From: Escherichia coli
GTDB taxonomy: Bacteria; Pseudomonadota; Gammaproteobacteria; Enterobacterales; Enterobacteriaceae
DNA: 64,000 bases
Strand: one strand, 5' to 3'
NCBI RefSeq assembly: GCF_044324875.1
Contig: NZ_CP172185.1
This document shows positions 4,653 through 27,238 of this stretch, one piece after another. The stretch's first letter is position 1, and each line of letters starts with the position of its first letter. Under the pieces are notes generated by a model. It did not search any database and was not told the origin of the DNA. It worked only from the letters and a program-made list of their open reading frames with translations. The position numbers and the translations under genes are program-made.

Positions 4653-6373
4653 GTAATATTCCATGTTCTGCAGATAATAATCCGGAAAAATATCCGGAAA
4701 CTGTCTGTCAGGAATATAATTGCACAGGCGGCGCGGATGATATCAGGTTCTTTTTTAAAAAAAGTCTGGAGCGTACTGTTAGTTCCGTTATCCGGACCGA
4801 AACATTAAGAAATACTGCAAAACGTGTGGATGGCCTGATCATCGGAACCGGTGAGGCTGATTTTACCAAAGACAACACACACTATAATTTACGCATTGAC
4901 GATAAAGATTTTCAGTTGATTGATGTTCCGGGTATTGAAGGTAATGAAACCTGCTACACACATCTTGTTAAAAAAGCCATTGCGCAGGCTCATCTGGTGG
5001 TTTACGTCAACGGTACCAATAAAAAGCCTGAAACAAGCACCGCAAAGAAGATCAAATCTTATCTGGAATATGGCACTCAGGTTTATCCGTTGATCAATGT
5101 ACGCGGTTATTCTGATGACTATGAATTTGAGGAAGATCGTGTCGCTCTCGAACAACAGGGTAGGGGCGGTGAGGCTTTATGCCAGACTGTTGGGGTGCTC
5201 GCTTCCGTATTAGGGGCGGATGTGTTGCTGAATGGGAACTGTGTACAGGGATTACTGGCATTTTCAGCGTTGGCTTATGACGACAATACACACAGAACAA
5301 CCATTCATCCGTTACGTGATCGAAATCTGGCGGTATATCAACGTGGTTTTTTTAATGTATTTCCTTCCCGTCAGGAAATGCTGACATTCAGCCAGATTGA
5401 TGCCGTCGCTCAGACAATTAAAAATAAGGTCGCAACGTTCCGTGAGGATATTATCGAAAGTAATAAATATAAAGTTCGTGAGACTCTGGATCAATACTTA
5501 CAGGTACTTGAAGAGCAATTAAACAGCCATCACTGCTTTTTACAAAAGACAATACCGGAATTTGAAAAATGCCGGACTGCGTTCAAAAATGCGACTGGTG
5601 AATTTGAACGCCGTATTGCGAACAGTCGTCGCAATCGCTGGAATAGCCTTTTTAATGACCTAGGGAATGCCTGTGATGGTATTGTCGAACATAATTTTGG
5701 TGACAGCAGTGCTATTTCCACACTGATACGTAATGAGTATGAAAAGCGCCGTAAAATGATGGAACAAATGATGCAGGAGGATACTGAAGAGAGTGTAAAG
5801 GTATTACAAGAGCAAACTCTTCAGGCGGTAAATCGTTTGCTGGAAGATATTCACAATGTGGAACTTCAACACCCCCTCAGTTTTGCTAACAGCCGCAGCA
5901 TCGAGTTTAGTGGAGAGATGGTACCTGGTTACGAGCTGGGGATGGCTGATTTCAGTTCAATGGTTTTAAAAATTGGCAGCTATGCAATGTCAGGCAGTGC
6001 AATTGGCAGCATCTTTCCCGTTATTGGTACGCTTGTTGGCTCTGCGGTTGGTGCGTTGCTTGGCATAATAATGACTATTGCGGGTATTTTTACCAGTAAA
6101 GCGTCAAAAATCCGCAAAGCACAAGGAAAAATACGCAACAAGCTGGAGGAAGTGCGGGATAAATCTCTCTGCAGCATACCTGATGAAACCCGCCTCCTGG
6201 TTGCAGCTATTGAAAAAGAACTTGAGTGTGGCCTGCTGCAAAAACTCAACGATATGCAGGTGGATCTGCAACAGCCTGTTGCCATATTCGAAACTCAAAT
6301 CAGTCGAATCACAACATTAAAGAAACAATTGGAGAAAATGCCTTATGGAACAATTCAAACAGTTCAGTATTGA
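4649..6373 (+). CDS. leoB: LeoB-like: remainder of the split dynamin-like protein
   Basis: Translationally coupled to the upstream gene; DVPGI (G3-like) motif; long helical regions and hydrophobic stretch near C-terminus. Confidence 0.55.
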   Translation: MSNIPCSADNNPEKYPETVCQEYNCTGGADDIRFFFKKSLERTVSSVIRTETLRNTAKRVDGLIIGTGEADFTKDNTHYNLRIDDKDFQLIDVPGIEGNETCYTHLVKKAIAQAHLVVYVNGTNKKPETSTAKKIKSYLEYGTQVYPLINVRGYSDDYEFEEDRVALEQQGRGGEALCQTVGVLASVLGADVLLNGNCVQGLLAFSALAYDDNTHRTTIHPLRDRNLAVYQRGFFNVFPSRQEMLTFSQIDAVAQTIKNKVATFREDIIESNKYKVRETLDQYLQVLEEQLNSHHCFLQKTIPEFEKCRTAFKNATGEFERRIANSRRNRWNSLFNDLGNACDGIVEHNFGDSSAISTLIRNEYEKRRKMMEQMMQEDTEESVKVLQEQTLQAVNRLLEDIHNVELQHPLSFANSRSIEFSGEMVPGYELGMADFSSMVLKIGSYAMSGSAIGSIFPVIGTLVGSAVGALLGIIMTIAGIFTSKASKIRKAQGKIRNKLEEVRDKSLCSIPDETRLLVAAIEKELECGLLQKLNDMQVDLQQPVAIFETQISRITTLKKQLEKMPYGTIQTVQY

Positions 6374-8078
6374 AAAACTGGCTGCGATTAATTCGCTATC
6401 ACAGTTGCGCGGAATGTTAGAAATGTTGGGAGATTTGGGGATAGACATCAGTGACGATTTACAAAAAATTACTTATGCAATTAATTCCATCGAATCTGAT
6501 GTTCTGCGTATTGCTTTGTTGGGGGCGTTTTCTGATGGCAAAACCAGCGTTATCGCTGCATGGATGGGTAAGATAATGGATGATATGAATATTTCCATGG
6601 ATGAGTCCTCTGATCGGTTGAGTATTTACAAACCGGAAGGTCTGCCAGACCAGTGTGAAATTGTTGATACACCCGGGCTGTTTGGTGATAAAGAGCGTGA
6701 GGTGGACGGGAAACAGGTGATGTATGAAGACCTGACCAAACGCTATATATCTGAAGCTCATCTGATTTTATACGTGGTTGATGCCACTAACCCGCTAAAG
6801 GAGAGCCACAACGACATCGTAAAATGGGTATTGCGCGATTTGAATAAACTCTCTTCAACCATTTTTGTTATCAATAAAATGGATGAAGTGACTGATCTGA
6901 CAGAGCAGGCGCTGTTTGACGAGCAGGCAGCAATTAAAAAGGCGAATCTTAAAGGTAAATTGCAGCGTGCAGCTGCTCTTACCGCTCAGGAGTGTGATCA
7001 GCTAAATATCGTCTGCATTGCTTCAAACCCAAACGGTCGTGGCTTAACGTACTGGTTTGATAAACCAGAACATTATGAAAGTCGTTCGCGCATTAACGAT
7101 CTTAAAAATGCTGCCACCGACATACTGAAAACTAATGTGCCAGAGGTATTGTTAGCGAAAACAGGTATGGACGTGGTGAAAGATATTGTCATTCAGCGTG
7201 CCACCCAGGCAAGCAGACAGTTCGATGAACTGAATCTGTTTGTTGAGAAGAATGACGAGGACATGTGTCGTTTTCAGAACGACATTAAGCAAAGTCGCAT
7301 TGAGGTTAAACGGCTGGCCGGAGAGTTATTTGAAGAGCTGAACCTGATGGAAAAAAAGCTGATGAGTCAACTGCGTTCACTCGATCTGGACGATATCCGC
7401 CCGTTTATGGACGATGAGCTGGGATATACAGAAGATGGGGTTGGCTTTAAGCTTCATCTGCGCATTGAGCAGTCAGTTCATCGTTTTTTCGAACAGTCGA
7501 AAGCGGTCTCGCAACGCTTATCTGATGATATCACTTGTCAGTTGAGCTCCAGCGAGAGCTTTCTAAGTGGCTTAGGCGAAGGCGCATTTCGTTCTTTAGG
7601 CGGGACCTTTAAGGGAGTGTCGAAAATTAGTCCGGCGACGCTCAAAACGACTATTTTGACCGCACGCGATACGATTGGCAAACTAACGGGATATACCTAT
7701 AAATTTAAACCCTGGGAGGCCACGAAACTGGCCGGAAGCATTTCCAAATGGGCTGGTCCTGTGGGTGCAGTGTTTACGATTGGTTCTGATCTATGGGATG
7801 CCTATAAAGCACACGAGCGGGAGCAGGAGCTGAAAAAAGTAAAAGAATCGCTGGCGAAAATCATTAAAGAGCAGTTTGAATATATCTATGACGTACTGAG
7901 TTCTGATGAGAAAATATTCGCCTTTTTTGCACCGCAGATCCAAAAAATGGAGCAGGTTGTTACTGAGCTGGCAGAGAAAAGCCAGGCTATTCGCGACAAC
8001 CGGCAGAAACTGAGCATTATTCAGACGCAGCTTGCACAACTAATGGTTCCAGCCACAGAAAACCATACTGTCAGATAG
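6345..8078 (+). CDS. leoA: Bacterial dynamin-like GTPase, LeoA-like
   Basis: G1 GAFSDGKTS, G3 DTPGL, G4 NKMD in order; 577 aa; overlaps the end of the upstream gene (operon). Confidence 0.75.
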   Translation: MEQFKQFSIEKLAAINSLSQLRGMLEMLGDLGIDISDDLQKITYAINSIESDVLRIALLGAFSDGKTSVIAAWMGKIMDDMNISMDESSDRLSIYKPEGLPDQCEIVDTPGLFGDKEREVDGKQVMYEDLTKRYISEAHLILYVVDATNPLKESHNDIVKWVLRDLNKLSSTIFVINKMDEVTDLTEQALFDEQAAIKKANLKGKLQRAAALTAQECDQLNIVCIASNPNGRGLTYWFDKPEHYESRSRINDLKNAATDILKTNVPEVLLAKTGMDVVKDIVIQRATQASRQFDELNLFVEKNDEDMCRFQNDIKQSRIEVKRLAGELFEELNLMEKKLMSQLRSLDLDDIRPFMDDELGYTEDGVGFKLHLRIEQSVHRFFEQSKAVSQRLSDDITCQLSSSESFLSGLGEGAFRSLGGTFKGVSKISPATLKTTILTARDTIGKLTGYTYKFKPWEATKLAGSISKWAGPVGAVFTIGSDLWDAYKAHEREQELKKVKESLAKIIKEQFEYIYDVLSSDEKIFAFFAPQIQKMEQVVTELAEKSQAIRDNRQKLSIIQTQLAQLMVPATENHTVR

Positions 8079-11087: not shown

Positions 11088-12281
11088 TTATTTCGTTTGT
11101 ACGTTTTTCTCCATAAGTGAATCAATGTAATCAGCGTACCACTGCATCATTTCACGACGTCCATCGAGATACAGGGCATGATTATAGGTACCCCTGATGG
11201 AGTTTTTATCCACATGCGCTAACTGCATTTCAATCCAGGCAGAATTAAAGCCCTGTTCGTGCAGAATTGTGCTCATTGTGTGACGAAAACCATGGCCGGT
11301 TGCTCTGCCATCGTAACCGATGCGTTTTAGTACCATATTGATGCTGGCTTCACTCATCGGTTTGTTAACATCGCAACGTCCGGGGAATATAAGGCGATAC
11401 TGCCCGGTAAAACGATGCAATTCCTGCAGCAGTGAAATGGCCTGGCGTGACAGAGGAACAATATGATGCCTGCGCATTTTCATTCGCTCTTCAGGGATAT
11501 GCCAGAGTGCGTTGTCAGAATCAATTTCTGACCATTCGGCCAGCCGCAATTCAATCGTTCTGAGTCCGGTCAGCATCAGCAGGCTCGTCGCCATACGGGT
11601 GACAGGACTGCCATGATAGTCAGCGAGCTTCCGGAGAAAAACAGGAAGTTCATCCGCTCTCAGATGGGGAAAATGTGCGGTTTTTGGTGCCGCCAGCGTA
11701 CTGGTCAGTTCTGATGCAGGATTGACAGTGGCACGTCCTGTGGCAATGGCATAACGGAAAATCTGATTGCAGTATTGACGGACCTTGCGTAATTTTTCCA
11801 GAGAGCCACGTTTTTCAATACGACGCAAAATCTCCAGCATTTCCAGCGGGAGGATATCAGTCACGCTCCGGTTGCTCAGATACGGGAAAACGTCTTTATC
11901 CAGCGCTTCCAGTACGCTTCTGGCGTAACTGTCAGACCATGATAAAGATTTATGATGATGCCATTCCATTGCGAGAGCATGAAAGGTGTTGGTGACAGAG
12001 ATTTTCTGAGAGAGTTTTTCCCTTCGCTTCTTTTCACCGGGATCTCCACCCTCGGATATAATTTTTCGTGCATCGTCGCGTCTGGTTCTGGCTTCAGCAA
12101 GGGAGACGTCAGGATAGACGCCGAGGGACAGTTTTTTCTCCTTTCCTGCTGTTCTGTACTTAAGGCGCCAGTAGCGTGCTCCCGTGGTTTTTACCAGCAG
12201 ATATAAACCACGTTCATCAGAAAGTTTATAATCTTTGTCTTTAGGTCTTGCCGTTTCGACCTGTCTGGCTGTAAGTGCCAT
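11088..12281 (-). CDS. int: P4-type tyrosine integrase
   Basis: MALTARQVETARPKDKDYKLSDERGLYLLV...RYWRLKYR...KLSLGVYP N-terminal domain typical of P4/CP4-57 IntA integrases; RBS-supported ATG at 12281; adjacent to tRNA-derived att. Confidence 0.9.
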   Translation of the reverse strand: MALTARQVETARPKDKDYKLSDERGLYLLVKTTGARYWRLKYRTAGKEKKLSLGVYPDVSLAEARTRRDDARKIISEGGDPGEKKRREKLSQKISVTNTFHALAMEWHHHKSLSWSDSYARSVLEALDKDVFPYLSNRSVTDILPLEMLEILRRIEKRGSLEKLRKVRQYCNQIFRYAIATGRATVNPASELTSTLAAPKTAHFPHLRADELPVFLRKLADYHGSPVTRMATSLLMLTGLRTIELRLAEWSEIDSDNALWHIPEERMKMRRHHIVPLSRQAISLLQELHRFTGQYRLIFPGRCDVNKPMSEASINMVLKRIGYDGRATGHGFRHTMSTILHEQGFNSAWIEMQLAHVDKNSIRGTYNHALYLDGRREMMQWYADYIDSLMEKNVQTK

Positions 12282-12457
12282 ATGGGGGCCCCTTAAACTG
12301 ACCGAACACAATGAGCCCCCAAATGTGCCCCCATTTAATGCTTGATTCAGGGGGTGTTCAATAGAATTCGGTGGAGTTCAAAATGTCCGGAACGATTATA
12401 AATCAGTGATTATACATGAATTTCGTGGAGTGCGGGGGATGTGTGTAGAAGTGAAGG

Positions 12458-12507
12458 TGGTGCCCTGACTCGGAATCGAACCAAGGAAACGGGGATTTTC
12501 AATCCCC
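12458..12507 (-). other. att core: 50-nt copy of the 3' end of tRNA-Phe (no D-arm or 5' acceptor strand), not a full tRNA gene
   Basis: Minus-strand read GGGGATTGAAAATCCCCGTTTCCTTGGTTCGATTCCGAGTCAGGGCACCA matches the anticodon arm to CCA end of E. coli tRNA-Phe (recalled) with 2 mismatches; upstream sequence does not fold as a tRNA. Confidence 0.75.
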
Positions 12508-12558
12508 GTGCCATAATTGGCTGTGTCAGTTGGTTACACACCATTGAGGTGTGTACTA

Positions 12559-13437
12559 ATGAAAATACTGCCCGTTGTCTCCACAAAAGGTGGCGAAGGT
12601 AAATCAACACAATCCGCAAACCTGGCTGGTTTTCTCGCCGATGCAGGTATCCGTACCCTGCTGATTGACGGAGATCATGCTCAGCCCACGGCAAGCAACA
12701 TCTTTCCGCTGACATATGAAGCGTCAGCCGGTCTTTTTGAGTTGCTGATGCGCACGGCTGACCTCAGTCATCCCGATAACATCATTTCCCGCACGGCTAT
12801 CGACGGACTCGATCTGATAGTCTCCAATGACCCTCATGAGCAGTTAAAAACTGCGATGCTTCACGCCCCGGATGGTCGTCTGCGCCTCCGGAATGTCCTG
12901 CAGCATCCGCTTTTTCTGAACAACTACGATGTCATTGTAGTTGATTCTCAGGGAGCACGTTCTGTCATGCTCGAAATGATTGTGCTGTCGGCCACTGATT
13001 CGGTTGTCGGGATGGTCAATCCGGTACTCCCTGATGTGCGCGAGTTTATTCGGGGCACTGTCAATGTTATGGAGAACCTGCTGCCTTACCGGGAGCTGGG
13101 GATACCCCTGCCGAAAGTACGCACGCTGGTTAACTGCATGGATTATACGGCACTGGCCAGGAAGACGCTGGATGAGCTGGCCGGAATTATTCAGACCGGT
13201 CGTTACAGCAGACAGTTACCTGAAGGTGCGGTTTCCCTTCTTTCCACACAGATTTACGACCTGAATATTTACAAGCAGGGGCATGCGGCTGGTCAACCCG
13301 TACATCGTCTCGAAAAAGAATCCACACGTCGCAGTGATTCCGCGCTTGTCACGATGCACAGCCTGGCCTGTGAACTCTTTCCTGAGTGGAAACAGGCGTT
13401 TGACGGGCTGCTGGCGAACGGGGGAATACGTCAGTGA
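12559..13437 (+). CDS. parA: ParA/Soj-family partition ATPase of the ICE
   Basis: Deviant Walker A VVSTKGGEGKST; first gene after att, as in pKLC102/PAPI-1-type elements. Confidence 0.85.
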   Translation: MKILPVVSTKGGEGKSTQSANLAGFLADAGIRTLLIDGDHAQPTASNIFPLTYEASAGLFELLMRTADLSHPDNIISRTAIDGLDLIVSNDPHEQLKTAMLHAPDGRLRLRNVLQHPLFLNNYDVIVVDSQGARSVMLEMIVLSATDSVVGMVNPVLPDVREFIRGTVNVMENLLPYRELGIPLPKVRTLVNCMDYTALARKTLDELAGIIQTGRYSRQLPEGAVSLLSTQIYDLNIYKQGHAAGQPVHRLEKESTRRSDSALVTMHSLACELFPEWKQAFDGLLANGGIRQ

Positions 13438-13504
13438 TTCAGGTTAAGCGAGAACCATGCAGCTCCGTTACCCTGGCTTATGGACGTTATCAATACCGGA
13501 CAAT

Positions 13505-14020
13505 ATGACGAGAAGGATTAACCCTATGAATAACAGCAGCAATACCACAACCCGTAATACGCTTTCACCCGTTGAGTCAGCCTGTCATGCCTTACTGGAT
13601 TTTATTGCCCGGGAAGTTTTTGAGAATAAAGCACCGGAAGAGGACGTCAGGGAACGTTGCAAAGTATTTACAGCGCTGCTTAACGAAGGATTTAAAGCCC
13701 TGCTTGATGAGGCAGGGCTGAATCTGTCAAACCTTCGTAAACAGTGTGAGGAACTGGAATCTCAGATAACCAGACTTGATTCTCAGTCCGATGCTATTTG
13801 TCGCAGAGGTGCTCAAATTGAACGCTTCATTGGTCACCATTTACCTTTTTTCGATTTGAACAAAGTTTTTGATACTGCCAGTCAGTCATGTGAACCAGCG
13901 CCTTCTCCGGCTCAGTCGGCTGTGTCCAGTAGTCAGCCCAGTAATCTGTCAGAGCAAGGGACATCTCAGCGGGTGTCATCTGTTCAACCGTTGCAGGGAG
14001 CCAGTGATGTTGATGAATAA
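13505..14020 (+). CDS. Hypothetical ICE protein
   Basis: ORF between soj and dnaB; start uncertain; low-complexity S/Q-rich C-terminus. Confidence 0.35.
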   Translation: MTRRINPMNNSSNTTTRNTLSPVESACHALLDFIAREVFENKAPEEDVRERCKVFTALLNEGFKALLDEAGLNLSNLRKQCEELESQITRLDSQSDAICRRGAQIERFIGHHLPFFDLNKVFDTASQSCEPAPSPAQSAVSSSQPSNLSEQGTSQRVSSVQPLQGASDVDE

Positions 14021-18838: not shown

Positions 18839-19083
18839 AGATGACAGAACTGGTTCCCGGAGTGCTGACAAGTCCGGGCGTCCCTCCCACCAGTCAGCGT
18901 AAGGCGGTTGAACTGGTCAATCGCTTCCGTCGTGGAGAGCGGAATTATCATGAACTGAAGGAAAGAGGATTTGGTTATTTCAAGATTGATGTTGGTCCTG
19001 ACTGGCGGTTACTGAGCCGGAATAAAGGGCTGACCTGGGCCCTGTTGAGTCATGAACGATACAACAACATGAGACTGAAGTGA
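18835..19083 (+). CDS. Small hypothetical protein
   Basis: AAGGAG RBS, ATG 18835; 82 aa. Confidence 0.5.
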   Translation: MKMTELVPGVLTSPGVPPTSQRKAVELVNRFRRGERNYHELKERGFGYFKIDVGPDWRLLSRNKGLTWALLSHERYNNMRLK

Positions 19084-19092
19084 GGTGGAAAG

Positions 19093-19350
19093 ATGAGTAA
19101 TGCAGCAAGACTCCAGCTGGGTTTTTCTCCGTTTTCAAAAACTATCGTGCTGGCAAAAATGCGTAATCTTGACGACGGAACCAGTCTTCGTGTCGGTAAT
19201 GATCCCGGTCGCGATGTAACCAATGAGGCGGCTCAGCTTGTCTGGCATCTGGTCATGGCAGAAGGTGGTGAAATTATGTGGGAAATGGACGATGGCTCCC
19301 GCATGGTGCTGAAGGCTGAAAGTCAGGAGGCAACCAGTGAGCAAGATTAA
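19093..19350 (+). CDS. Small hypothetical protein
   Basis: 85-aa ORF, same strand, compact spacing. Confidence 0.45.
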   Translation: MSNAARLQLGFSPFSKTIVLAKMRNLDDGTSLRVGNDPGRDVTNEAAQLVWHLVMAEGGEIMWEMDDGSRMVLKAESQEATSEQD

Positions 19351-19945
19351 CTACCAGGCACTGCGTGAGGCGGCAGAGCAGGCAATGCATGACGACTGGG
19401 GATTTGACACGGATCTTTTCCATGAGCTGGTAACACCATCGATTGTGCAGGCACTGCTGGATGAACGGGAAGCCCAAAGCAAACACGTAGCTGAACTGGA
19501 GGCTAATTTATCGGCGATGACCGAAGACCACCAGAAAGCGACTGAGTCAATTAAGCAGGCTGATTCGGCTGTTAAGTTGGCACACGAGACGTTTTCGGCG
19601 CTGGCGGCGGAGAATGCAAAGCTGAAGAAGTTCTGCAAAGACGCTGCATTCGATGCCGATTACGAAGCAGAGTCAGGTATGGAGCGTGGTGGATTCAGTG
19701 ATGCGCTTAACGAAATCAAAATCACAGCCACCGACGCTTTCCTGGCTGAAGTACGGGCGCAGGGGGTGGATGCTGCTATAGACGCTGCAAAAAATCTGGT
19801 GGCTCAGGAATATGAGTATAAGGATTTCAAAGCGGCGCAGAGTGATTGCTGTATGTTTCCTGGTTCAGACCTGGTAGGGAAGGTTGAAATGACCGAGTGG
19901 TTAGTTGACTTTGCCGCAGAGCTTCGCAAAGGAGGCAACCAGTGA
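19337..19945 (+). CDS. Ead/Ea22-like prophage-type protein
   Basis: N-terminal ...INYQALREAAEQA... and coiled-coil middle, recalled as typical of Ea22-like proteins of lambdoid prophages. Confidence 0.5.
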   Translation: MSKINYQALREAAEQAMHDDWGFDTDLFHELVTPSIVQALLDEREAQSKHVAELEANLSAMTEDHQKATESIKQADSAVKLAHETFSALAAENAKLKKFCKDAAFDADYEAESGMERGGFSDALNEIKITATDAFLAEVRAQGVDAAIDAAKNLVAQEYEYKDFKAAQSDCCMFPGSDLVGKVEMTEWLVDFAAELRKGGNQ

Positions 19946-20256
19946 ACAAGATTGACTATCAGGCACTGCGTGAGGCGGCAGAAGCAATAAAAATAGCAGC
20001 CACACCACAAAAATTGCTGGCATTTCGTATGAAAGTCACACCTCAGGTTGTGCTGGCGCTGCTGGATGAGCTGGAAACCAAAGAAGAACAGCGAGCTAAC
20101 TTGCAGGGACCAGAAGGATTGATTAAAGCAGTGCGCTTCTATGAACAGGTTAAGCGTGAAAATCCGCCAGTCGAAACCGGAGTATGGAAAGACGCTGTTG
20201 ACTGGGTGCTCAAAGAGGCTTGCCAGGCTGTAAACATTGGCATCAAAGGAGAGTGA
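19942..20256 (+). CDS. Ea22-like short paralogue
   Basis: N-terminus MNKIDYQALREAAEA repeats that of the upstream gene; ends ...IGIKGE. Confidence 0.5.
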   Translation: MNKIDYQALREAAEAIKIAATPQKLLAFRMKVTPQVVLALLDELETKEEQRANLQGPEGLIKAVRFYEQVKRENPPVETGVWKDAVDWVLKEACQAVNIGIKGE

Positions 20257-20258
20257 GA

Positions 20259-20750
20259 GTGCAGATTTCACCGGTTACTCTTCGTGTTGCGAAGGCGTTT
20301 ATATCCAGACATCACCGACACAATAAACCCCCGGTGGGGCATAAATTCAGCATTGGTCTGAGAAATGATGCCGGAGAATTGATAGGTGTGGCGACAGCCG
20401 GTCGACCTGTAGCACGACATTTGGATGATGGATTAACGCTTGAAGTAAATCGCACATGTACCACAGGAGAACGCAACGCTAACAGCGCGCTTTATGGTGC
20501 TGTCTGGCGGGCAGCAAAAGCTATGGGTTATCAACGTTGTATTACGTACACCCGGGCAGATGAATCAGGAGCATCTCTTCGCGCAACTGGTTTTGTTCGT
20601 GTGAAAGAGCTTCCTCCAAGAAAAAGCTGGGCGGAATCAAGCGTCGCCCTGCGGAGTAAACGCGATCCAGTCGGAAACGGTGGTGTTCCTCGTGTGCTCT
20701 GGGAAATCAGGAGAATGAGTACCACTGGTATTCGCATCAAAGGAGAGTGA
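20259..20750 (+). CDS. XF1762-like hypothetical protein (possible acetyltransferase-like fold)
   Basis: GTG start 20259 after AAGGAGAG; ...ISRHHRHNKPPVGHKFSIGL...; ends ...GIRIKGE. Confidence 0.45.
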   Translation: MQISPVTLRVAKAFISRHHRHNKPPVGHKFSIGLRNDAGELIGVATAGRPVARHLDDGLTLEVNRTCTTGERNANSALYGAVWRAAKAMGYQRCITYTRADESGASLRATGFVRVKELPPRKSWAESSVALRSKRDPVGNGGVPRVLWEIRRMSTTGIRIKGE

Positions 20751-20751
20751 T

Positions 20752-21267
20752 ATGGCGTTAACACACCACGAACTCTGTCAGATTGCGTACAAGTTCCTTA
20801 AGCGCAACGGGTTCAAGGTTTGCTTTCATGACCGCTTTATAGCTGTAACCAGTACCGGAGAACAGCCAGATGCTATGGGATTCAGAAATTCAGCATCATG
20901 CCTGATAGAGGCGAAGTGTTCTCGTGCTGACTTGTTGGCAGATAGAAAAAAGCGTTTCCGTAAAAATCCCTCACTTGGCATGGGCGACTGGCGATTCTTT
21001 ATTAGTGAGCCGGAAATTATTTCAGTTGAGGATTTACCTCCCGGCTGGGGATTACTTCACGTTGTTAACGGAAGAGTACGGAAAGTACATGGATGGCCCA
21101 GGGGTAATTGCTGTTGGGGTAATCCTGACGATAAGCCATTTACTGGGAATAAGCAGGTTGAATGCGATTACATGTTATCTGCATTAAGGCGCATGGAGCT
21201 AAGAGGACACCTTAATGAAATATATGACGGTGTAATTGTTAATAAGAAAGAAGGAAACGCAGCATGA
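20752..21267 (+). CDS. MmcB-like PD-(D/E)XK nuclease-fold protein
   Basis: ...PDAMGF...CLIEAKCS... D-x(n)-ExK arrangement; recalled similarity to the MmcB family. Confidence 0.5.
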   Translation: MALTHHELCQIAYKFLKRNGFKVCFHDRFIAVTSTGEQPDAMGFRNSASCLIEAKCSRADLLADRKKRFRKNPSLGMGDWRFFISEPEIISVEDLPPGWGLLHVVNGRVRKVHGWPRGNCCWGNPDDKPFTGNKQVECDYMLSALRRMELRGHLNEIYDGVIVNKKEGNAA

Positions 21268-21513
21268 CCACTTTAACCGACAAAGAACTAATTAAAGAAA
21301 TCAGAGAGCGAATACCCCGCCTTGCCAGCGTCGGTAGTGCCTGAAGGACTGGTTAAAGCAGTGCGTTTCTATGAACAGGTAAAGCGTGAGAATCCGCCAG
21401 TCGAAACCGGAGCATGGAAATACGCTGTTGACTGGGTATTACAGGAAGCATGTCAGGCTGTTCATTGGTGCCGACAGATATCAGCCCTTCAGGAACAGGA
21501 GAATCATTCATGA
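21264..21513 (+). pseudogene. Frameshifted remnant of an Ea22-like paralogue
   Basis: 27-codon N-terminal piece (MTTLTDKELIKEIRERIPRL...) followed, in another frame, by ...LVKAVRFYEQVKRENPPVETGAWKYAVDWVLQEACQAV, nearly identical to the C-terminus of the 19942-20256 product. Confidence 0.4.
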
Positions 21514-21725
21514 GAAAAATCAGTGGAATGTTGAATCTGGAGAAGGCCAGGATGCAGTTGCGTGTTTTGTTATCTGGACCTGTTCCTGCAATCACTCCGA
21601 TGGCGCATGCCGTGGCAATAAAAGTTGTGCTTGATGCTCTGGATGCGAGTGAGCGGAGGGTGGCTGAACTGGAACAGGTCTGCACTGCCGCGGGTATTCG
21701 TATCAAAGGGGAACAAGTGAAATGA
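21510..21725 (+). CDS. Small hypothetical protein
   Basis: AGGAG RBS, ATG 21510; ends ...AAGIRIKGE with the same junction motif as neighbours. Confidence 0.4.
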   Translation: MRKISGMLNLEKARMQLRVLLSGPVPAITPMAHAVAIKVVLDALDASERRVAELEQVCTAAGIRIKGEQVK

Positions 21726-21943
21726 AACGGAAAATGCAGACAATTTCGGGTCCTGTGATTATCGACAGTAATGAGGTGACACAGTTTTACCCGGACCATG
21801 AAAGTGGAGGGGAACTCACCGCTGTTGAGTACCTTGCTGACGGGGGAAGAATCACCGCGAGGGTGAGGCACTCTTTTTATCAGGTTGCTGCGGCACTTGC
21901 CGGGGCATGGCGTGCGGATGATGCATCAAAAAGCGGTGGGTGA
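21722..21943 (+). CDS. Small hypothetical protein
   Basis: 73-aa ORF coupled to upstream stop. Confidence 0.4.
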   Translation: MKRKMQTISGPVIIDSNEVTQFYPDHESGGELTAVEYLADGGRITARVRHSFYQVAAALAGAWRADDASKSGG

Positions 21944-23483: not shown

Positions 23484-23808
23484 TCTATGGCGCTACTGGC
23501 ACCATAGTACAAAAAATAAGCGATGGTGCCACTGGCACCATAGTACAAAAAATGAGCGATGGTGCCACTGGCACCACGGTATAAAAAATGAGCGATGGTG
23601 CCACTGGCACCACGGTATAAAAAATGAGCGATGGTGACGCTGGCACCATAGTACAAAAAATAAGCGATGGTGCCACTGGCACCACGGTACAAAAAATAAG
23701 CGATGGTGCCACTGGCACCATAGTACAAAAAATGAGCGATGGTGCCACTGGCACCATAGTACAAAAAATGAGCGATGGTGCCACTGGCACCATAGTATAA
23801 AAACGAAC
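23484..23808. repeat. Iteron array: 9 tandem copies of a 36-bp unit (GCGATGGTGCCACTGGCACCATAGTACAAAAAATGA)
   Basis: Unit starts at 23520, 23556, 23592, 23628, 23664, 23700, 23736, 23772 (exact 36-bp period) plus a partial first copy; only minor variants (cacGgtaTaa, gtgaCGctgg). Confidence 0.9.
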
Positions 23809-26924: not shown

Positions 26925-27238
26925 CTTGTCGCTCCGGCGACCACCAATGTTCCATAGTGGCCTGTGAGGAACGCCTTCGGGTGGCCCATGTCGCTTCAGC
27001 GACCACCAATGTTCCATGTGGCCTGTGAGGAACGCCTTCGGGTGGCCCACGTCGCTCCGGCGACCACCAATGCTTCATCTGACCTGTGAGGAGCGCCTTC
27101 GGGTGGTCAGTTTTACACCTCCTGAGCCTGAAAGGAGCTGTGCGTACTGAAGGGATATATTCCCGGAAGTACGGGCAAATCTGCACACCTTTGAGAGCAG
27201 ATGTCACTGCGGTTTTCCGTGATGATGAAGGCTTTTTT
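26925..27238 (+). repeat. Structured repeat element, copy 1 (3 tandem ~60-bp subunits plus ~130-bp conserved tail ending in a T-run)
   Basis: Subunits GTCGCTCCGGCGACCACCAATGTTCCAT(a)GTGGCCTGTGAGGAACGCCTTCGGGTGGCCCA(t/c); tail ...TTTTACACCTCCTGAGCCTGAAAGGAGCTG...GATGATGAAGGCTTTTTTT; near-identical copies at 60942 and 63735. Confidence 0.85.

Follow-up and report, generated by a model that had tools for sequence, protein, structure and literature searches.

Mosaicism in lambdoid phages has been attributed to boundary (linker) sequences, an idea that goes back to the modular theory of Susskind and Botstein (1978) and was taken up for phage HK620 (Clark et al., 2001), both as cited in PMC3029335 and PMC2327257. 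These are short conserved sequences at gene borders, flanking interchangeable modules, and their exchange has been ascribed to homologous recombination, carried out by enzymes of the host or of the phage; of these, Red and RecET are known to act on homologies that are short or diverged (PMC2327257). Ea22 has a pro-lysogenic effect in lambda and Shiga toxin (Stx) phages, and is built from a conserved N-terminus, a coiled-coil, a variable C-terminal domain and a K/R-G-E tail (PMC7093339). This "+GE" tail was present on every Ea22 protein examined, and its significance has been called unknown (Dydecka et al., 2020; PMC7093339). Here we describe a block of eight tightly packed plus-strand genes (19093-21943, from reading of the sequence and its open reading frames (ORFs)) in a stretch of 64,000 nucleotides of Escherichia coli DNA (contig NZ_CP172185.1; hereafter the window), in which Ea22-like genes and unrelated enzyme genes are joined by a recurrent sequence that also closes ea22 of phage lambda. 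Since genes of an integrative and conjugative element (ICE) stand on both of its flanks in the annotation by the Prokaryotic Genome Annotation Pipeline (PGAP), the block lies in a variable slot of an ICE of the SPI-7/PAPI-1/ICEclc type.

Every gene border in the block is either a stop/start overlap or a gap of 1-3 nt. An exact 15-mer, ATCAAAGGAGAGTGA, is present just twice in the 64 kb (20242-20256 and 20736-20750). Both copies close a gene (ending …NIGIKGE and …TGIRIKGE, respectively) with a TGA stop, 2 nt and 1 nt before the next start. A variant, GGTATTCGTATCAAAGGGGAACAAGTGAAATGA, which is 84% identical over 25 nt to the copy at 20722-20746, closes the 71-aa gene at 21725 as …GIRIKGEQVK; its Shine-Dalgarno (SD) sequence is weakened, the stop is shifted by three codons, and the border with the next gene is an ATGA overlap. 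These three sites are called J junctions below. Two further repeats connect the Ea22-like paralogues. An N-terminal repeat (D2; 19325-19377 against 19930-19982) covers 53 nt at 94% identity, its first copy supplying an SD and a GTG start, followed by codons for S-K-I-N-Y-Q-A-L-R-E-A-A-E, and a C-terminal repeat (D1; 20110-20231 against 21340-21461) covers 122 nt at 87%. The repeated junction of stop codon and ribosome binding site, as well as the sharing of N- and C-terminal ends between paralogues, had been noticed in the original prediction, which was made from the sequence alone, and all of these repeats were recovered. The repeat within the window is unremarkable by itself, as about two pairs of repeated 15-mers are expected somewhere in 64 kb, and a motif search allowing three mismatches is uninformative as to significance, with 18 of 100 shuffles attaining three matches. 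The junction is significant because of its position, in frame at the stops of adjacent genes, and because of its recurrence elsewhere.

Phage lambda ea22 ends with GCTGGCATTCGCATCAAAGGAGAGTGA (…AGIRIKGE and stop), nucleotide-identical to the junction. Because lambda ea22 carries the same sequence, the recurrent junction is identified as the 3′ terminus native to lambda-type ea22, (G)CTGGCATTCGCATCAAAGGAGAGTGA, which codes for …GIRIKGE and the stop. The SD motif AAGGAG in this frame gives Lys-Gly-Glu, which would explain the "+GE" tail of Ea22.

The patch associates freely with unrelated neighbours. Among 159 IMG/VR loci, a redundant set picked via two flanking genes, the 15-mer is present on the coding strand in 136, in two copies in 40, and on the opposite strand in none. 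KGE is the commonest ORF tail in these related loci, and 46 of 49 distinct KGE ends are encoded by AAAGGAGAGTGA, with essentially no synonymous variation. A scan of IMG/VR with a 17-mer of the motif only, independent of the flanking genes, found at least 80 phage loci; in the 80 analysed, the motif closes an ORF of at least 60 aa in 75 and is followed by a start codon within 16 nt in 72. Among the matches listed for these loci, at least 10 upstream C-domain clusters and at least 15 downstream families are joined in at least 37 combinations. When the flanks of 98 distinct contexts were compared (4753 pairs), 3195 pairs were unrelated on both sides, 443 were alike only upstream and 467 only downstream. 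Flank homology is bimodal: it either ends 0-15 nt from the motif or extends for at least 65-110 nt. About 27-30 nt make up the conserved patch (CtGGCATTCGCATCAAAGGAGAGTGAtATG), and information is at background on either side of it. A second patch marks the 5′ ends of Ea22-like genes. It consists of a 16-mer, AGGAGGCAACCAGTGA, and the codons for S-x-I-N/D-Y-Q-A-L-R-E, the 16-mer occurring 115 times in the related loci, in 57 distinct contexts and behind 28 different upstream tails. Absence of the junction from related elements had been set beforehand as one of the observations that would tell against a module-exchange role; the junction recurs in both samples. In one locus of the motif-only sample (L164-L243; pair U8-D8), the 17-mer stands between the genes for a holin-like membrane protein and for an apparent peptidase-type endolysin, and therefore the junction, or a look-alike, is present once in a lysis cassette too.

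Breakpoints of similarity fall at the patches, including those between sibling ICEs. When 20200-20800 was compared by megablast with 5,426 E. coli genomes, matches started at 20722-20739, or stopped at 20256-20258 or 20756. Over all fetched loci, the end-points of high-scoring segment pairs (HSPs) peak at 19320, 19370-19380, 19900-19940, 19970-19980, 20720-20730, 20750 and 21270. The first two peaks are HSP starts and ends at the first N-type patch, starts at 19900-19940 and ends at 19970-19980 belong to the second, and the peaks at 20720-20730 (121 starts) and 20750 (81 ends) belong to the second J junction. The ICE backbone is present in 65 of the 5,426 genomes, and the slot is variable among the carriers. 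The G1/2 ICE shares 98.5% identity with the window as far as 19375 and 96.6% from 20725 onward, with an unrelated stretch at 19376-20724 in between, and these edges are exactly the ends of an N and a J patch. Similarity to the SF-088 ICE likewise resumes at 20725, and the SF-088 and NC101 ICEs hold different cassette sets. The STEC2018-553 ICE is colinear with the window to 19983 and then has an intact gene for a 236-aa Ea22-like protein, the 3′ end of which corresponds to 21326-21513 of the window. In the EC19 prophage, an Ea22-like gene is joined straight to the gene for the 171-aa protein via a single junction, without an XF1762 gene. These EC19 cassettes (locus L162, 3974-7622) lie downstream of replication genes (DnaT-like, P) in a nin-like position and not between exo and xis; therefore the cassettes move between different early operons. 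The modules of the block, counted at 85% identity or more, are found in 324 phage records (many of them Stx phages), 684 plasmids and 2759 E. coli genomes, far beyond the 65 genomes with the ICE backbone, in agreement with the prophage-like origin proposed earlier for the block.

We consider, with a probability of roughly 0.65, that the block is an accessory array of the lambda exo-xis/ea type in an ICE slot, and that the J and N patches are boundary sequences for homologous exchange of cassettes. In this process, an array of small accessory genes would have been transplanted into the slot, within the co-directional parA-dnaB-parB…STY4528 string. Each gene would probably be translated by coupling to the preceding one, since the genes are packed stop-to-start, and the AAGGAG of the junction would drive translation of the gene downstream. 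The J patch (about 27-30 nt) and the N patch (AGGAGGCAACCAGTGA and the INYQALRE codons) would act as portable boundary sequences because they are identical between otherwise unrelated neighbours. Crossovers of RecA, Red or RecET type in the patches, or in shared domain-coding stretches, would insert, delete and swap cassettes, and the exchange would run among prophages, phage-plasmids and ICEs with reading frames and downstream translation signals preserved. The original prediction had named the junction a homology patch for module exchange; its recurrence and the mosaic breakpoints at it make exchange the best explanation, and from these breakpoints we infer that crossovers occur inside the patch. 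The likeness to the lambdoid boundary sequences extends to the genes concerned, which are lambdoid early-operon accessory genes in both cases. On the other hand, the patch described here is the 3′ end of ea22 with an in-frame SD, and it is common to prophages, phage-plasmids and ICEs, and is documented in an ICE slot. In a bolder form of the proposal, which is put forward tentatively and is rather doubtful, the J and N patches would be maintained as recombination handles, making up a recombinase-free cassette system by which prophages, phage-plasmids and SPI-7-type ICEs trade genes in frame, with the "+GE" tail as a by-product. The cargo of such a system may be polymorphic Ea22 C-domains and a minimal Mom-like GNAT (Gcn5-related N-acetyltransferase), possibly nucleic-acid-modifying.

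Several points weigh against exchange at boundary sequences. A length of 27-30 nt is about the minimum for efficient RecA pairing. Breakpoints at gene borders are also expected from illegitimate recombination followed by selection. The invariant codons could mean recent common descent and not selection on the nucleotides. Lambda retains the exact junction without a coupled gene downstream of ea22, and thus the SD function alone cannot account for its conservation there. In addition, the 159 loci form a redundant set chosen by flanking genes, and counts from these and from the 80 or more motif loci are not population frequencies.

The second of these points is the core of another explanation, in which the junction is kept only as a signal for termination and restart of translation (SD, stop, restart) and the mosaic arises by illegitimate recombination with selection for intact genes (the Hendrix model). 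A consensus AAGGAG lies 6-7 nt from the start at each of the first two J junctions, all gene borders in the block are closely spaced, and …KGE, …GGE or …KGD, after different residues, is also found at the ends of other genes in the region; moreover, boundary sequences are lacking at most mosaic borders of phages (PMC3029335). However, the identical stretch begins about 12 nt before the SD (GGCATTCGCATC) and runs into the stop, neither synonymous nor SD-variant versions of it occur, and lambda retains the patch where no gene is coupled to it. The 3195 of 4753 pairs that are unrelated on both flanks would also be difficult to explain if no crossovers took place in or at the patch, so that a translation signal as the sole cause is unlikely. 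It is still less probable that the shared element is a functional C-terminal peptide (…GIRIKGE, "+GE"), such as a tag for degradation or interaction, with nucleotide identity as a by-product. K/R-G-E at the ends of all Ea22 proteins examined (PMC7093339), its presence on at least 10 different C-domains and its retention in lambda Ea22, where no coupled gene follows, would fit with a peptide function. Against this, a single codon set, including the rare GGA codon, encodes 46 of the 49 KGE tails, the variant at 21702-21725 reads through to …GEQVK, and in the XF1762 family the tail is absent from 10 of 13 orthologue clusters, diverged in two, complete only in E. coli, and predicted to be disordered. 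A chance repeat or an assembly artefact, which the unremarkable repeat statistics of the window would allow, is refuted by the strand-specific recurrence in 136 of 159 loci and the many junction combinations, by hundreds of records from phages, plasmids and genomes in which the motif is invariably in frame with the end of a gene, and by an independent complete genome with the identical sequence and a second genome with 98.7% identity, and has practically no probability left.

The features of the block are collected in Table 1, and the products of its genes are considered below.

Table 1. Genes and boundary patches of the accessory block, with positions in the 64,000-nt window
Feature	Position	Strand	Basis or remarks
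DUF7446 gene, 85 aa	19093..19350	+	PGAP; phrog_1578 at 2e-31; 98% identical in sibling ICEs
N-type boundary patch, copy 1: AGGAGGCAACCAGTGAGC…	19325..19377	+	Repeat family D2
Ea22-like gene 1, 202 aa	19337..19945	+	PF13935 3.7e-11; phrog_368 3.9e-54
N-type boundary patch, copy 2	19930..19982	+	Repeat family D2
Ea22-like gene 2, 104 aa	19942..20256	+	PF13935 5.1e-7; phrog_26213 1.5e-32 (residues 42-104); repeat family D1
J junction 1: …ATTGGCATCAAAGGAGAGTGAGA	20228..20258	+	AAGGAG 7 nt before GTG 20259, TGA stop in between
XF1762-family gene, 163 aa	20259..20750	+	NF045478 201 bits; phrog_1384 8.5e-42
J junction 2: CCACTGGTATTCGCATCAAAGGAGAGTGATATG	20722..20754	+	AAGGAG 6 nt before ATG 20752
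Intact PD-(D/E)xK nuclease-fold gene, 171 aa	20752..21267	+	phrog_9263 5.6e-121; model; alignment
Scar or remnant, split piece	21264..21513	+	ORF reading; PGAP; sibling ICE comparison
71-aa gene ending …AAGIRIKGEQVK	21510..21725	+	Conserved in sibling ICEs
J junction 3, variant: GGTATTCGTATCAAAGGGGAACAAGTGAAATGA	21688..21725	+	Repeat family D3
73-aa gene, last of the block	21722..21943	+	phrog_5994 at 7.2e-26; PGAP

Both Ea22-like genes match the lambda Ea22/P22 Ead family (PF13935), as had been read from the sequence, and PGAP names both ead/Ea22-like. Their layout is that of the family, i.e., N-terminus, coiled-coil, variable C-domain and "+GE" tail. In the 202-aa protein, a lambda-Ea22-type N-terminus (residues 2-51 share 78% identity with lambda Ea22) is followed by a coiled-coil and by a C-domain that ends in …FAAELRKGGNQ, without a +GE tail. 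The 104-aa protein has an Ea22 N-terminus, a VKAVRFYEQVKRENPPVETG C-domain and the …NIGIKGE tail. In contrast to lambda ea22, the genes are in an ICE and not between exo and xis, and their C-domains are unlike that of lambda; the pro-lysogenic phenotype of phage Ea22 has no obvious meaning in an ICE. Among the junction loci from IMG/VR (L164-L243, upstream clusters U0-U7), the conserved N-terminus and coiled-coil of Ea22-like proteins are followed by C-terminal domains of at least eight unrelated kinds; one of these has a P-loop-like GFTGCGKS motif and another is Cys/His-rich. Such a polymorphic architecture is reminiscent of conflict systems.

The remnant between the 171-aa and 71-aa genes begins as a 26-codon ORF (21264-21344) and continues in another frame, …PASVVPEGLVKAVRFYEQ…, from 21322. 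Its first part is a gene start of the MTTLTDKELIKE… type, an N-terminal type that recurs as downstream family D1 of the junction loci, and its second part is an Ea22-like 3′ end (…VKAVRFYEQ…HWCRQISALQEQENHS and stop); PGAP labels 21313-21513 as incomplete. This 3′ part is 88% identical to the 3′ end of the intact gene for the 236-aa Ea22-like protein in the STEC2018-553 ICE. The piece had been taken for a frameshifted paralogue. The split into two frames is real, although a simple frameshift is rejected, as the intact gene in the sibling ICE reveals a truncation or recombination scar. It is better described as a recombination or deletion scar, in which the 26 codons are joined, in a different frame, to the end of the Ea22-like gene that belongs to the ICE itself.

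The 163-aa protein belongs to the XF1762 family, as had been suspected: NCBIfam NF045478 matches residues 3-136 with 201.4 bits (cut-off 50; E 5.3e-60). It also matches phrog_1384, annotated as "Mom-like DNA modification protein" (8.5e-42), and, partially, the Pfam family Mom (PF25680; 1.9e-4). Its AlphaFold2 model (mean predicted local distance difference test score (pLDDT) 80.8) has a GNAT fold, with a core of residues 1 to about 152 and residues 155-163 predicted to be disordered. The Foldseek matches are GNATs, with Mom of phage Mu (8bv8) second by E-value (2.7e-7) and top query TM-scores (TMq) of 0.70-0.72. Mu Mom carries out a tRNA-Gly-dependent N6 modification of adenine, and R111, S124 and a helix-turn-helix (HTH)-like insertion at about 175-209 are required for its activity (PMC13219725; the numbering there is that of the GenBank translation plus 10). 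The invariant R65 and S76 line up with R111 and S124 of Mom in weak alignments (BLAST E 0.27; hhalign E 0.067). Besides the fold, the Pfam Mom and PHROG "Mom-like" matches are held in common with Mom. On the other hand, the protein has 163 residues (about 152 of them core) against 231 in Mom, and no com-like regulator is nearby. The core is about 78 residues shorter than Mom, and between its last strands the model has only a low-confidence loop of about 20 residues (122-142), so that the HTH-like insertion that Mom needs is most likely absent. Because of the shorter core and the probable lack of this insertion, the protein is judged from the model to be a Mom-like GNAT and not an orthologue of Mom. 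A nucleic-acid-modifying role is conceivable. A full-text literature search for "XF1762" found no paper.

The GNAT core of this protein is followed by the tail …MSTTGIRIKGE. In an alignment of the orthologue clusters, 10 of 13 have no such tail and end near …RVLWEIR(R) with short unrelated tails. Two clusters (P0126 and P0153), one from an uncultured Enterobacter and the other from a Salmonella, have diverged tails, …TTAGIKLQIEGE and …AAGIQVIEGEDGE, and a full-length tail of the …GIRIKGE type is found in one E. coli cluster (P0122) only. Since the tail is mostly absent from the orthologues and predicted to be disordered, it belongs to the junction and is not a part of the XF1762 enzyme.

The 171-aa protein encoded next is, from its model and alignment, a PD-(D/E)xK nuclease of an unnamed family in the neighbourhood of Hjc, MmcB and YraN. 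D40, E53 and K55 are invariant in 35 aligned sequences, and the AlphaFold2 model (pLDDT 85.4) has an alpha-beta-beta-beta-alpha-beta core with the D…(D/E)-x-K motif. No structure in the PDB was matched by the model in Foldseek at E≤0.001; the weak matches (E≥0.04) are nearly all PD-(D/E)xK proteins (R2 endonuclease domain, Hjc, AF1548, HincII). A profile of distant members matches PDB entry 3dnx at 1e-4, and Hjc weakly. When 36 distant relatives were scanned singly, Hjc was matched by 3, MmcB-like by 1 and UPF0102 by 1 at E≤0.001, and Hjc by 15 and MmcB-like by 9 at E≤0.1. AFDB50 relatives of about 41% identity bear the automatic names MmcB family or YraN. The family has 3226 representatives at E≤0.001, and all its members are called hypothetical. 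The PD…E-x-K core is shared with MmcB-like proteins (PF06319), Hjc and YraN/UPF0102, and to this extent the MmcB-like label first given to the protein is loosely supported; membership in the Pfam family MmcB (PF06319) itself is rejected, as Pfam finds nothing for the protein up to E 10. The PGAP call for this gene in at least four genomes is a "frameshifted" pseudogene that covers its first 179 nt only. The ORF is intact and conserved across Enterobacterales (window 20752-21267; 6074-6589 in locus L161; 6059-6570 in locus L162), and the pseudogene call is probably an annotation artefact.

As for the rest of the block, the DUF7446 gene is the last one common to the closest ICE relatives before the variable slot, and its stop overlaps the start of the first Ea22-like gene. 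The 71-aa gene has no family match in NCBIfam, PHROG or PGAP. Behind the 73-aa gene, 260 nt of non-coding DNA precede the STY4528-family gene. The XF1762 protein is the only one of the block with an NCBIfam match, and sequence searches of the PDB with single block proteins gave nothing meaningful, the 104-aa protein matching designed helical repeats only. A scan for promoters and terminators found no convincing one on the plus strand within the block. An anti-restriction or repair role upon entry of single-stranded DNA had also been suggested; nothing found backs it, and PADLOC gave no defence-system match below E 0.009 for any block protein.

The window is identical to part of the chromosome of E. 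coli TUM1886 (NZ_CP128970.1), where window position 19000 corresponds to 910513. PGAP annotation of this record, which bears out the ICE context proposed earlier, has the kps capsule cluster and, behind it, a run of ICE genes that are all in one orientation. Upstream of the block the order is parA, dnaB-PI ("SPI-7-type island replicative DNA helicase"), parB, DUF2786, DUF2857, a ParE-like gene and DUF7446; downstream it is the STY4528-family island replication gene, PFL_4669, topoisomerase III, STY4534, ssb, traD and many TIGR037xx ICE genes. The backbone markers of SPI-7/PAPI-1/ICEclc-type elements are thus present in the identical record (dnaB-PI, ParB, STY4528, STY4534, PFL_4669, the TIGR037xx set and TraD). 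No tRNA gene was found in the 64-kb window. An IS110-family transposase fragment at about 11300-12560 (12280-13560 in locus L001), between the kps capsule cluster and the ICE parA, may mark the ICE edge or a later rearrangement.

There are some further features in the ICE outside the block. At 23487-23803, between the STY4528-family "island replication protein" gene and the PFL_4669 gene, 8.8 tandem copies of a 36-nt unit (92% matches) are found, and the unit holds the palindrome ATGGTGCCAGTGGCACCAT. This array is iteron-like in look and is a candidate ICE origin. Rfam reports no family inside the block; elsewhere in the window, four STAXI matches (26927-27233, 60945-61117, 63740-63911), two of them directly after the topoisomerase III gene, and one EFASI match (61642-61764) are above the gathering scores. 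STAXI and EFASI motifs are typical of this ICE family and may function as single-stranded DNA.

PGAP had already labelled the Ea22-like genes and the XF1762 gene, both boundary sequences and the "+GE" tail are known from the literature, and the block is a clear example of the known boundary-sequence exchange and not a new type of system. A literature search for "Ea22-like" together with "mosaic" gave nothing relevant. What may be new is that the "+GE" tail is traced to a junction of SD and stop read in frame, that the combinatorics of this junction are quantified, and that the same patches are found to bound cassette replacements in ICEs.

Collectively, the block provides a clean, countable case for the old, contested boundary-sequence route to phage mosaicism, with a patch of about 30 nt, at least 37 combinations and breakpoints at the patch, and it extends the exchange network past phages to ICEs and plasmids. 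It gives a simple account of the Ea22 "+GE" tail, as an in-frame Shine-Dalgarno sequence and then a stop. Two widespread, uncharacterised enzyme families ride these cassettes, the XF1762 family, predicted to be a Mom-like GNAT with more than 3000 relatives, and the putative PD-(D/E)xK nuclease family with more than 3000 cluster representatives.

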